A stretch of 61,967 nt of DNA, filler included, from 4 parts of 4 records of this genome joined end to end with filler, not necessarily neighbours in it; one strand, 5' to 3'. Numbered from the whole stretch's first letter, positions 12,533 to 15,599 are shown. Numbers and translations are program-made. The notes: generated from the sequence alone by a model not told the origin.

Positions 12533-13459
12533 TTAATTTAAAAAGCTTGTGATATTCTCTTCTATTCCATCTAATAATCTTTTCCTTGCTTCAATAGACC
12601 CCCATGCAATATGTGGTGTTAAAAGAAGTCTTGAACTATCCTCTATAGTTAAAAGGGGATTACTTTTTTCGATAGGTTCACGACTTACTACATCTGTTCC
12701 ATAATAGATATCTTCTCCTTTATTGATTGCATCACTGATATCTTGTTCATTGATAATTCCACCTCGACCAAGATTTAAAAGGATCGCCCCTTTTTTAATC
12801 GCTGAGATATTTGAGCTATTAATCAGATCAAGAGTTTTTTCATTTAATGGTGAATGGATAGAGATAATATCACTCCCCTTTAATAACTCTTCTAAAGACT
12901 TTTGAGTGTAGTTTGTATTATAATTTGCTCCACTAGTTGAATAATAACTCACATTACAACCAAATGCACTAGCGATATTTGCTACATCACGCCCTATTTC
13001 ACCTAAACCTATAATTCCCCAGTTTTTCCCCTCAAGTTCAAAAAATGGCTTTTCTAGATTAGTAAATATTTCACTTTTAGACCATTCATTTTTCCCGTAG
13101 TTATCATAGTAGTCTATTCTTTGTACAAACTGTAGTACAAATGAAAATGTGAGTTGTGATACAGACTTTGTTGAGTACCCTGCTACATTCTTCACTGTTA
13201 TATTTTTCTCTTTTGCGTATTCAAGATCAATATTATTCATCCCTGTTGCAGCTACACAAATAAGTTTTAGATCACTTTGCTCCATCATACTTTTATCAAT
13301 AACTACTTTATTAGTGATCACAATATCTGCACCTTGTATTCGATCTAATGTTTCCTCATAGGAGGTTGTCTCATATACTTTTACTTCCCCATATTTTGAA
13401 AACTGATCAATATTTATATCTAAGCCTAAAGTTCTTCTATCTAAAAATACTAATTTCAT
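12533..13459 (-). CDS. D-2-hydroxyacid dehydrogenase
   Basis: GIIGLGEIG, IHSPL, LNLGRGG and TPHIAW motifs. Confidence 0.93.
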   Translation of the reverse strand: MKLVFLDRRTLGLDINIDQFSKYGEVKVYETTSYEETLDRIQGADIVITNKVVIDKSMMEQSDLKLICVAATGMNNIDLEYAKEKNITVKNVAGYSTKSVSQLTFSFVLQFVQRIDYYDNYGKNEWSKSEIFTNLEKPFFELEGKNWGIIGLGEIGRDVANIASAFGCNVSYYSTSGANYNTNYTQKSLEELLKGSDIISIHSPLNEKTLDLINSSNISAIKKGAILLNLGRGGIINEQDISDAINKGEDIYYGTDVVSREPIEKSNPLLTIEDSSRLLLTPHIAWGSIEARKRLLDGIEENITSFLN

Positions 13460-13484
13460 CTTTTTCCTTCGTATAATACATTAA

Positions 13485-13692
13485 TCAATCAAATAGTTAA
13501 AATATGATTGAAGTTCTATGAAACTCATAGCTCTCACAAAAGCTAATAATAAACAAGTTTTTTTCCTTTTAGGATAAATATACCTACATACAAAACGTCT
13601 TGTGTTAGCTTTATTAAATCATCTATAGGATGCTAAGGAGTAAAGTAATTTTCTACCTTTTATAACACGAAGCTATGAGATTTTAAACTATC
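13485..13692 (+). ncRNA. Predicted IS110 bridge RNA in the left non-coding end
   Basis: Nested stems 13485-91/13505-11, 13524-32/13671-79, 13539-46/13605-12, 13570-73/13583-86 and 13635-38/13656-59; loop segments match target and donor sequences. Confidence 0.7.
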
Positions 13693-13712
13693 ACACATTA
13701 TGGAGGATTATT

Positions 13713-14930
13713 ATGTATTATGTTGGAGTTGATATTGCAAAAGAGAAGCATTATGTTTGTATTTTAAATGATGATAAAGAGTTAGCTTGTAAACCTTTTT
13801 GGATCTACAGTGATATATTAGGATTAAATGAATTACTAAAACGACTAAGTGAATTATCACTTAACAATGATGATTTTATCATAGGGATTGAATCAACTGG
13901 TGCATTTAGTGAAAATTTTTATTCTTATATCACTGATATGGATTACAAAGTCTTACTTCTAAATTCATATCAAACAGCAAAGTATAGAGACTTTTCTACT
14001 TTAAAGAAAATTAAAAATGATTCTATTGATGCTTATGTTATTGCTGAATTAATAGCTAGTGGTAAATACAAAGCTAGTTATATTAGTAATGAAGATTATC
14101 ACAATTTAAAAGTTTTAAATAGACTTAAAAAATCTTTGGATGATAAAATTAAAACCATTAAAAGAGAAATATCAACAGTAGTAGCTACAGTCAATCCTGA
14201 AATTGAAAAAGTATTTCCAAATATTCTTACTAAAACTGCTTTAGTAATCATCAAAGAATACCCAACTAGTGTTGATCTTAAAAAGGCTACTATTAAACGC
14301 TTACTTAAGCTTTTTAGGAACATTAAGGGTAACAACTTTAATGAAGTCAAAGCACAACACTTGATTGACCTAGCTAATTCCTCAATATATGCTGGTCGTG
14401 CTAAAGATGCTCGTTCCTTGATGATTAAGACTAATATTAAGATATTAGAGCTTTTACTTCAAGAAAAAGATTCCATAGAAAAAGAAATTACTAATCTTAT
14501 CAATACAAAAATTGATAATGATTCCAGTAATATTGACAATGCCAAATCAATTCCAGGAGTTGCTGATAAAACTATTGCAGCTATACTTGGTGAATGTGGA
14601 GACTTGCGTAGGTTTGAATCTGCTAAAGCTTTCATTGGCTTTTTAGGACTTTATCCAACACTATATCAATCTGGAAAATCTTTATCTACTGGTAAACTTG
14701 CCAAAAGAGGAATACCTATAGCCAAGCATTCACTTTATCTTGCAGCAGTTGCATCTGTTAGACACAATACTGAGCTTAATAAACTATTCCGTGATAAAGT
14801 ATCATCTGGAAAATCAAAAAAAGAATCTTTAATAATTGTTGCTAAAAAATTGGCTTCAATTATTTATTCACTTTTTAAGTATGATCAACCTTATAATCCA
14901 ACTAGAGTACTTATCCAACATAAAAGATAA
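13713..14930 (+). CDS. IS110-family transposase/recombinase
   Basis: DEDD RuvC-like domain (VGVDIAK, GIESTG, KNDSIDA); C-terminal SIPGV...RRFESAKAFIGFLGLYPTLYQSG; GGAGG RBS. Confidence 0.96.
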   Translation: MYYVGVDIAKEKHYVCILNDDKELACKPFWIYSDILGLNELLKRLSELSLNNDDFIIGIESTGAFSENFYSYITDMDYKVLLLNSYQTAKYRDFSTLKKIKNDSIDAYVIAELIASGKYKASYISNEDYHNLKVLNRLKKSLDDKIKTIKREISTVVATVNPEIEKVFPNILTKTALVIIKEYPTSVDLKKATIKRLLKLFRNIKGNNFNEVKAQHLIDLANSSIYAGRAKDARSLMIKTNIKILELLLQEKDSIEKEITNLINTKIDNDSSNIDNAKSIPGVADKTIAAILGECGDLRRFESAKAFIGFLGLYPTLYQSGKSLSTGKLAKRGIPIAKHSLYLAAVASVRHNTELNKLFRDKVSSGKSKKESLIIVAKKLASIIYSLFKYDQPYNPTRVLIQHKR

Positions 14931-14977
14931 ACTTGTTAGTTTAACACTTGTGAGAACAATGAGTTTTTATAGAACTT
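14929..14977. repeat. Imperfect inverted copy of IS left-end segment 13511-13560
   Basis: AAACTTGTT...TTGTGAGAacaATGAGTTTttATAGAACTT versus the reverse complement of the left segment AAACTTGTT...TTGTGAGAgctATGAGTTTcATAGAACTT. Confidence 0.8.
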
Positions 14978-15104
14978 TGACCAAAATGTATTACTCTTTT
15001 TAAATTTGATCATTTGAACATTTTAAAAAATGCTCAAAAAATCAAACCATAAAGCACGCCCTAAAAAAATAGCTACTTGTTTAAGCTATTCTTTATAGGA
15101 TGGT

Positions 15105-15599
15105 TTATAATTCTTGTTTTATTTTTTCTAATGCATCTTCAAAGCTTTTACAACATACAATATCTGCAAACATTAAATTATACGGCAATCCAAAATCTTC
15201 TATCAATAGATCATGATTATCTCGTATAGCATCTTTTTGAAGATCTAAAATCTCTATAGTTTTTTCTTTCAAGCTACGAAGATCATCAGTGTACCCAAAT
15301 ACTTTTTTTCCAAGTCCTGTAGCATACCCTACTTCCCAAACTGTTCCACTATCAGGTTCACATCCACGAAATAATGATAAGTTTGCTACAACTACGTCAC
15401 ATTTTTGAATAAGTTCAATATTTGCTTTTTGTATTTTTTTTGCTAATTCTTTTGAGCTTAATCCCTCTGCACAAATCTCTGAATCAAGTGGGAACAAACC
15501 CTCCACTCCAGCGCTTAAACAAAGCTTTTTTAAGTGTTGTCCATGTTCAATTGCATCTGCTTTAAATACATCAGGTCCAGCTAAATATACCCTTTTCAT
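15105..15599 (-). CDS. Nucleoside 2-deoxyribosyltransferase family protein (C-terminus clipped by the IS)
   Basis: VYLAGPDVF and DSGTVWEVGYA motifs; the stop codon is created at the IS junction. Confidence 0.9.
   Translation of the reverse strand: MKRVYLAGPDVFKADAIEHGQHLKKLCLSAGVEGLFPLDSEICAEGLSSKELAKKIQKANIELIQKCDVVVANLSLFRGCEPDSGTVWEVGYATGLGKKVFGYTDDLRSLKEKTIEILDLQKDAIRDNHDLLIEDFGLPYNLMFADIVCCKSFEDALEKIKQEL

Follow-up and report, generated by a model that had tools for sequence, protein, structure and literature searches.

Members of the IS110 family of insertion sequences have been shown experimentally to be RNA-guided (Durrant 2024, PMC11208160), and for one element of the IS110 group, IS621, both the bridge RNA and its recombinase have been described (Durrant 2024, PMC11208160; Hiraizumi 2024, PMC11208158). 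According to these accounts, the IS621 RNA is organized as tandem stem-loops in which the right donor guide (RDG) is discontiguous and the 3' side forms 4-7 nt of pairing with the top strand (PMC11208160, PMC11208158); the left target guide (LTG) spans 9 nt, and so-called handshake bases complement position 7 of the non-cognate DNA (PMC11208158). RNA-guided target choice has also been reported for the IS1111 group, which employs the same recombinase superfamily and whose guide is termed a seekRNA (Siddiquee 2024, PMC11187229); in this group, the guide RNA resides in the right end and the subterminal inverted repeats measure 7-17 bp (PMC11208160). Two insertion sequences of Mycobacterium avium, IS900 and IS901, are described as inserting at translation initiation signals in a fixed orientation (PMC2942039, which cites Doran 1997 and Inglis 2003 for the insertion sites), and for ISPpu10 a 'dual-match' arrangement has been described in which a determinant located 5' of the base-paired target adds specificity (bioRxiv 10.64898/2026.03.19.712850).

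The locus considered here lies in a window, by which we mean the whole stretch of 61,967 nt that was analysed, from an AT-rich Campylobacterota lineage. Positions 13470-15103 very probably constitute a recent, apparently intact insertion sequence of the IS110 group, which carries a DEDD/Ser recombinase and whose left non-coding end, from about 13484 to 13680, encodes a bridge RNA. The element belongs to a known kind, that of the IS110 bridge-RNA recombinases described in 2024. This reading is built on features that can be observed directly in the sequences compared, among them the ends and core of the element, a covarying RNA structure, the identity and covariation of guides with DNA, and an intact catalytic motif set. 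The features of the insertion locus are as follows.

13457-13459, minus strand: start codon (CAT on the plus strand) of a D-2-hydroxyacid dehydrogenase gene, 8 nt from the core
13461-13467, plus strand: left target (LT), 7 nt, TTTTTCC, identical to 13560-13566; its position is set by the empty site
13468-13469, plus strand: core dinucleotide TT, left copy; there is one TT in the G001 site and two in the window
13470-15103, plus strand: body of the IS110-family insertion sequence, 1634 bp, absent from the G001 locus
13472-13477, plus strand: TATAAT, a -10-like box that is also part of the right donor (RD), conserved in all relatives
13713-14930, plus strand: IS110-family DEDD/Ser recombinase, 405 aa, intact open reading frame (Pfam, NCBIfam, PDB alignment)
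14931-15103, plus strand: right end (RE), whose last bases, 15094-15103, are the left donor (LD)
15104-15105, plus strand: core dinucleotide TT, right copy, from the empty-site comparison; T15105 is also in the stop codon of the gene at 15105-15599
15106-15112, plus strand: right target (RT), TATAATT, contiguous with the left target in the G001 empty site

The nearest genome (G001) served as the empty-site reference for the window. Its sequence at the same locus is 98% identical in the flank and runs through the site without interruption, reading ...CATCTTTTTCCTTTATAATTCTTG... (in a longer stretch, ...CATCTTTTTCCTTTATAATTCTTGTTTT...). Comparison of the empty with the occupied site leaves a single reading, in which the insert is 13470-15103 and one TT has become two, and since the element is absent from a genome so similar in its flank, the insertion is recent. 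The insertion point falls in a 13-nt spacer separating two co-oriented genes, one of which (12533-13459, minus strand) is the D-2-hydroxyacid dehydrogenase gene (NCBIfam NF006263, 444.5 bits), whose Shine-Dalgarno (SD) region appears, in reverse complement, as the left target. Because the TT core is duplicated, the stop codon of the upstream gene (15105-15107) and the downstream SD (AAGG) both survive the insertion. Eight full-length relatives, representing seven distinct sites in five other genomes (G006, G101, G166, G169 and G119), start with CGTATAATAC, finish with TATAGGATGG and have TT on both sides, and the same left boundary is seen at 15 more left junctions, located at contig ends or within deletion derivatives. 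The core is TT at all 24 left junctions of the window's subfamily and at all of its sequenced right junctions. Near-identity over the last ~24 nt of the right end extends to a sister subfamily (L043-L047 and L049; 46-48% amino acid identity), where the core is CT at 5/5 left and 5/5 right junctions (L044-L047 and L049; L043 is without a left junction and was left out of the right-junction count). The left end (243 nt, 13470-13712) is longer than the right end (173 nt).

These junctions bear directly on an alternative placement of the recombination point. TATAAT occurs near both junctions, 2 nt inside the element and again directly after the right core (15106-15111), and the original prediction had taken it for the junction itself, from which followed a core that differs between target (CG) and donor (TT) under relaxed rules, and 3' guides ATAC and TTATAA. 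The distances from TATAAT to the AGG of each loop domain are arithmetically correct, yet we regard this placement as extremely improbable: the empty site holds a single TT and no CG and so yields a TT core on both sides, in agreement with the junctions of the relatives; the GTAT assigned to ATAC (13471-13474) is DNA of the element; and the TTATAA assigned to the donor (15105-15110) consists of the core and host DNA of the right flank. Misplacing the junction at TATAAT thus made both 3'-guide assignments, and the relaxed-core inference, wrong. The second TATAAT stands after the right core either by coincidence or through some likeness of right target and right donor.

Several copies among the relatives have flanks or contexts of their own. 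After TT, the right flank of L024 (G006:C1, ~263740) reads CGTATATTAAAG, which resembles the left end of the element and is unlike the T-rich right targets; this likeness could be chance, a remnant, or right-arm recognition by the donor guide. Two of the four G006 copies, L033 and L034 (G006:C1, ~240 kb and ~121 kb), have identical flanks on both sides over at least 30 nt, which suggests a segmental duplication that included the element rather than two insertions. L001 (G001:C66:1121-1446) is a 3' fragment of a related copy, consisting of the last ~325 nt and 87% identical; it ends in ..GGATGG/TT and is preceded by unrelated sequence, in the same genome that also has the empty site. Finally, L042 and L038/L039 are the same variant (80% aa) on short contigs binned as Flavobacterium sp. 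and as Sulfuricurvum sp. from related sample names, for which a repeat binning artefact is more likely than transfer between phyla.

The recombinase open reading frame matches Pfam PF01548 (DEDD_Tnp_IS110, 3.5e-27) and PF02371 (Transposase_20, 1.4e-19) and scores 187.2 bits against a cut-off of 140 with NCBIfam NF033542, 'IS110 family RNA-guided transposase'. Its sole relatives in the PDB are the transposases of ISCro4 (E 1.1e-22, the best) and IS621 (E 1.8e-22); ISCro4/IS622 (PDB 9t56; bioRxiv 10.1101/2025.05.14.653916) shares the protein family and is a distant relative only. In the alignment with IS621, D7, E60, D103, D106 and S279 occupy the columns of the residues to which Hiraizumi et al. 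assign catalytic roles (PMC11208158), and the protein is a putative active recombinase. An exact look-up of the protein returned no identical entry in the collection searched. The original prediction spoke of a new programmable recombinase/RNA pair; a bridge-RNA-like element is indeed present, but NF033542 and the IS621 and ISCro4 matches leave no room for a new kind. An opposite-strand gene resembling hed of IS900 was sought and rejected, the longest minus-strand open reading frames within the element being 83 and 58 aa only. Past the recombinase stop, the right end contains an imperfect inverted repeat, TTTGATCATTTGAAC..GCTCAAAAAATCAAA (window 15004-15046), which is kept in relatives and may be a terminator or a protein site.

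The folded features of the left end are the following.

13485-13511, plus strand: 5' stem-loop of the bridge RNA, in both the minimum-free-energy (MFE) and the consensus fold; 3/5 pairs change on both sides
13524-13535, plus strand: long-range helix, 5' strand, which closes the donor-binding loop (DBL) and encloses the target-binding stem-loop
13539-13557, plus strand: stem of the target-binding loop (TBL), 5' strand, consensus fold
13570-13586, plus strand: TBL hairpin TAGG/CCTA, with compensatory changes (TAGG/CCTA, CTGG/CTAG, TTGG/CCAA)
13599-13612, plus strand: TBL stem, 3' strand, consensus fold
13635-13659, plus strand: DBL hairpin AAGG..CCTT; 4/9 pairs change on both sides
13669-13679, plus strand: long-range helix, 3' strand, from the folds; includes G13672, a candidate DBL handshake base

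The MFE fold (-41.8 kcal/mol, z = -2.38) consists of a 5' hairpin, a long-range helix, CTCATAGCT/AGCTATGAG (13524-13532 and 13671-13679), and two internal-loop domains. It thereby reproduces the 5' hairpin, the outer stem and the two domains with AGG...CCT stems that had been drawn from the sequence of this one copy, and RNAalifold on 10 non-identical relatives returns the same architecture as the single-sequence fold. For the 42 pairs scored in 10 sequences, the paired fraction of cells is 95.9%, and in 10 of the pairs both partners change; none of 500 shuffles reaches either structure value, and controls with the structure slid along the alignment are 36-51% paired. Pair 74/140 of the TBL stem, for example, changes from CG to UA in 4/10 sequences. 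The long-range helix is paired in 98% of cells, and its changes are one-sided and wobble-compatible only. One further predicted helix (CATC/GATG, together with a 1-bp hairpin) was dropped, leaving these 42 pairs, because it pairs the donor guide with itself. A search of 13300-15300 against Rfam 15, with E values up to 10, yielded no relevant family, and the miRNA- or snoRNA-type matches below threshold are due to chance, those of 'miRNA' type arising from the inverted repeat at 15004-15046.

What speaks against the main reading in this fold is the closure of the donor loop, which falls to a long-range helix where IS621 has tandem stem-loops; a weak local alternative has 4 bp. As candidates for a local closing stem, TCAT/ATGA and, further out, AAATC/GATTT offer only 4-5 bp, and both were rejected as the main helix of the window's subfamily since the pairing is lost, by eye, in L009, L038 and L008. 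For the sister subfamily, RNAalifold favours a tandem fold with local closure, in which a basal stem contains three compensatory pairs, and a long-range pairing of equal length is also possible there. For the window's own subfamily, the nested topology, in which the long-range helix surrounds the target stem-loop, is likely, though insecure.

With the junction set by the empty site, the guides can be placed in the numbering used for IS621, in which the left arm is positions 1-7, the core positions 8-9, and the right arm begins at position 10. Pairings beyond the two 9-mers were assigned by eye.

13560-13568, plus strand: left target guide (LTG), TTTTTCC plus core TT, 9/9 identical to 13461-13469
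13593-13595, plus strand: right target guide (RTG), AAA, by eye; complements the core TT and the first T of the right flank
13596, plus strand: candidate TBL handshake base, C, by eye; complements donor position 7 (G15103), not target position 7 (C13467)
13624-13632, plus strand: left donor guide (LDG), TATAGGATG, 9/9 identical to the right end at 15094-15102
13660-13671, plus strand: right donor guide (RDG), TTATA-ACA-CGAA, by eye; discontiguous pairing with TTCG-TATAA (13468-13476)

The 9-mer TTTTTCCTT is common to loop 1 and the left flank and corresponds to target positions 1-9, on the 5' side of the loop; the matching 9-mer of loop 2 is shared with the right end. The original prediction had reported both matches, and both hold in full; loop 1 is the target-binding and loop 2 the donor-binding loop, and the original prediction placed the two 5' guides correctly. 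The LDG ends with donor position 6; at position 7 a C stands against G, and the T that follows corresponds to core position 8, leaving the second core base uncovered. In the RDG, CGAA pairs with T8, T9, C10 and G11 and TTATA with T12-A16, whereas 13665-13667 are unpaired, the middle base of these (13666) varying among relatives as C, T or A. At the window site, the RTG forms three contiguous pairs (T8, T9, T10) and the following bases misfit; in G006, 5-6 pairs form at 2/3 distinct sites (by eye). Across relatives, the A-run of the RTG and the bases after it partly follow the right flank, and the signal is weak: by eye, the T-run that succeeds the core is matched in length exactly in 3/6 elements and with a difference of 1-2 in the others. 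The short RTG pairing and the mismatch and gap of the LDG count against the main reading. The second handshake candidate, G13672, complements target position 7 (C13467) and not its own donor (by eye). Both candidates directly follow the complements of the core and fit the rule of Hiraizumi et al., and the sister subfamily shows the same TBL handshake pattern.

A structured left end with loop matches to neighbouring DNA could also be a 5' leader that regulates the transposase, the matches then being due to chance or to a similarity of target and junction that is read by the protein alone. For this explanation it can be said that similarity between target and circle junction was reported in older literature for IS117 and IS900 (PMC1525189), that the DNA is AT-rich, with many sites loosely matching LT positions 1-5, and that each 9-mer match by itself is found in 1-2% of shuffles. 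Specifically, when 13478-13712 was shuffled 5000 times with its dinucleotides preserved, the 15 nt of left flank met a same-strand match of at least 9 nt in 100 shuffles and the 15 nt of right end in 51, and of 254 other 235-nt tiles of the window, five match the left flank and five the right end. The two matches never arose together in the 5000 shuffles, and in the element they occupy homologous positions, on the 5' sides of the two internal loops. The original prediction had itself cautioned that the matches are short and the DNA AT-rich.

Covariation of loop with flank, a check proposed in the original prediction, separates the explanations further. In L004 (G036), a changed LTG in loop 1, TTTTGTCCCTT, is matched 11/11 by the element's own flank, TTTTGTCCCTT, and in L025 (G142) a G precedes CC in loop and flank alike, at a position that is T (17) or A (3) in the other 20 sites. 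When flanks were permuted among 23 loop/flank pairs, the observed LTG identity was reached in 0/20000 permutations, and within the 18 pairs of the window's subfamily in 1/20000; because the other loops of the subfamily are alike, its covariation rests mainly on L004 and L025. Between subfamilies, the core and the RDG covary: loop 1 of the sister subfamily ends in ..CTC-CT and its RDG carries TATGAG opposite CTCATA, such that the RDG changes from A to G with the core change from T to C, and from C to U with the change from G to A at right-donor position 11. The LDG and the right end are conserved together in all relatives, including the sister subfamily, and vary too little for covariation to show. 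With the IS110 family known from experiment to be RNA-guided (PMC11208160), a regulatory leader whose matches are fortuitous or protein-read is very unlikely, and a guide RNA is the preferred reading. Identity of cognate LTG and LT ranges from 4 to 9 of 9 across elements, which indicates that natural sites tolerate mismatches in positions 1-5.

A guide RNA could nevertheless belong to a copy that is bridge-type and inert, with a guide set in decay. The RTG fits its own site poorly, with 3 bp, and C13591 of the loop, which is T in G006, worsens the fit to the window's own right flank; the 62-kb window contains a single copy; and deletion derivatives exist among the relatives (L005, L013 and L015). 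Against this, the open reading frame is intact with all catalytic residues, the insertion is recent, as its absence from G001 indicates, and the position-7 mismatch of the LDG, being common to all relatives, is a family trait rather than decay. Inertness of this copy is accordingly unlikely, and we continue to treat the element as apparently intact. The derivatives differ in form: L013 (G138) is MITE-like, with ~211 nt of left end and ~150 nt of right end; L015 and L029 (G176) are deletion derivatives, and L015 retains nothing of the target-binding stem-loop and little of the gene; and L005 (G110) has internal deletions in the gene. In L004:1316-1552 (G036), the donor loop carries 28 inserted nt (alignment columns 157-184) that take the place of most of the LDG, and the contig ends soon after.

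The perfect TATAAT at 13472-13477 is a putative promoter element for the RNA/transposase transcript. A promoter scan of the inserted state detected no sigma-70 pair on the plus strand upstream of the RNA and no -35 partner for this box, nor was a -35 partner seen by eye at the circle junction; promoters of the Campylobacterota phylum are often without a -35 box. On the minus strand, a promoter-like pair (TTAACT, 16 nt, TATTAT; 13500-13473) faces the host gene, and such matches are not above shuffles (2 found, 2.4 expected). In assemblies from three RNA-library runs and one DNA run, contigs 85-99% alike from the RNA-library metagenomes cover the bridge-RNA region, for example 231 nt over 13505-13738 and 275 nt over 13465-13738; they show neither strand nor ends, carry G006-type letters, leave the host flanks uncovered and may be DNA carry-over. 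No circle junction was seen in the contigs of the RNA-library or DNA runs. By analogy with the described systems, the RNA would be transcribed from the left end and bound by the recombinase, and the protein encoded at 13713-14930 would use the RNA of 13484-13680 in recombination. An excised circle would, as in IS621, join right end, TT and left end, and strand exchange would take place at the shared TT core, leaving the core on both flanks of the insert.

Several features are shared with IS621. In both elements, a left-end RNA precedes the DEDD/Ser recombinase gene and has a 5' stem-loop and, after it, two loops, the first for target binding and the second for donor binding. In both, the LTG consists of 7 nt and the two core bases, the RTG is short and the RDG discontiguous; handshake bases, candidates in the window element, complement position 7 of the non-cognate DNA; and the 2-nt core is duplicated at both ends. 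The core is CT in IS621 and TT in the window element, and the recombinase is ~326 aa in IS621 as against 405 aa here, with similarity limited to E ~1e-22 over two stretches. The LDG of the window element, at 9 nt, still falls one base short of the core, and its RDG leaves three bases unpaired where that of IS621 leaves two. As a difference that is not secure, the donor loop of the window element is closed by a long-range helix around the target stem-loop and not by a local stem. The two also differ in target: the target of IS621 is a REP element, whereas that of the window element is an SD region. From the IS1111 group the window element departs in having a left end longer than its right end (243 vs 173 nt) that holds both guide loops; a copy of the LT 9-mer was sought by eye in the right end and none was found, and the right-end placement of the guide RNA that characterizes IS1111 elements does not apply to it.

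Judged from the sites compared, the natural target is the reverse complement of an SD region, AAGG-N6-ATG. The start codon lies exactly 6 nt before CCTT, i.e. 8 nt from the core, in 22/24 distinct sites of the subfamily (left junctions of the window, L004-L037 and L042, the codon of L042 being read by eye), and these 22 codons comprise 21 CAT and 1 CAA. The exceptions are L003 (GAT, no open reading frame) and L005 (one base further). Of 21 codons tested, 20 open a reading frame of at least 91 codons or one running off the locus, and that of L031 opens 35. In the sister subfamily, the start codon stands 8 nt from the core in 3/5 sites and 9 nt in 2/5. Such a register is not expected from the spacing of host genes: in 400 kb of G006, 86 sites are guide-compatible (CCTT, at least 5/7 T upstream, T after the core), and CAT occurs at spacings of 6, 7 and 8 in 9, 8 and 7 of them; gene-start-like AAGG-Nx-ATG sequences of the window number 7, 6, 5 and 4 for x = 6, 7, 8 and 9. 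Nor is it expected from the guides, a point that counts against the main reading. A longer LTG that reads CAT was considered and rejected, since only the T fits the U-run, and the RNA bases that follow (G, then A) match neither the A nor the C of CAT, of which wobble G.T pairing might accommodate the A alone. No conserved AUG or CAU segment was found elsewhere in the loops when the alignment of relatives was inspected by eye.

These observations lead us to propose, tentatively and as a possibility that we think somewhat improbable, that this Campylobacterota IS110 clade has a second layer of target recognition that is not encoded by the guides, a start codon 8 nt 5' of the core. The closest parallels differ in their particulars. 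IS900 and IS901 are reported, in the account cited above (PMC2942039), to insert between SD and start codon, whereas crossover of the window element takes place where the SD begins on its 5' side (AA/GG), such that SD and ATG stay together, and the element has no long opposite-strand open reading frame. The determinant described for ISPpu10 is a stem-loop rich in GC (bioRxiv 10.64898/2026.03.19.712850); that of the window element would be a start codon held at a fixed distance within AT-rich DNA. A literature search, with subscription journals mostly outside its coverage, returned no paper in which a bridge-RNA element has a start-codon determinant and none on the Campylobacterota clade of the window element.

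For the family as a whole, the window element, which comes from an AT-rich lineage of Campylobacterota, provides a cleanly resolved natural bridge recombinase, with its empty site, its core, the four guides and candidate handshake bases; it has a TT core, a longer recombinase of 405 aa, and relatives in which loop and site covary. It is of use in annotation and can enter engineering screens as a candidate orthologue, and it leaves the picture of IS110 function unchanged. The start-codon register is the part that could matter more, as it may signal a specificity determinant that is read by the protein or is hidden. If the recombinase, or an unrecognised segment of the RNA, does read CAT, the element would be a natural 'guide plus fixed DNA motif' recombinase, PAM-like in its logic and different from the stem-loop gate reported for ISPpu10.
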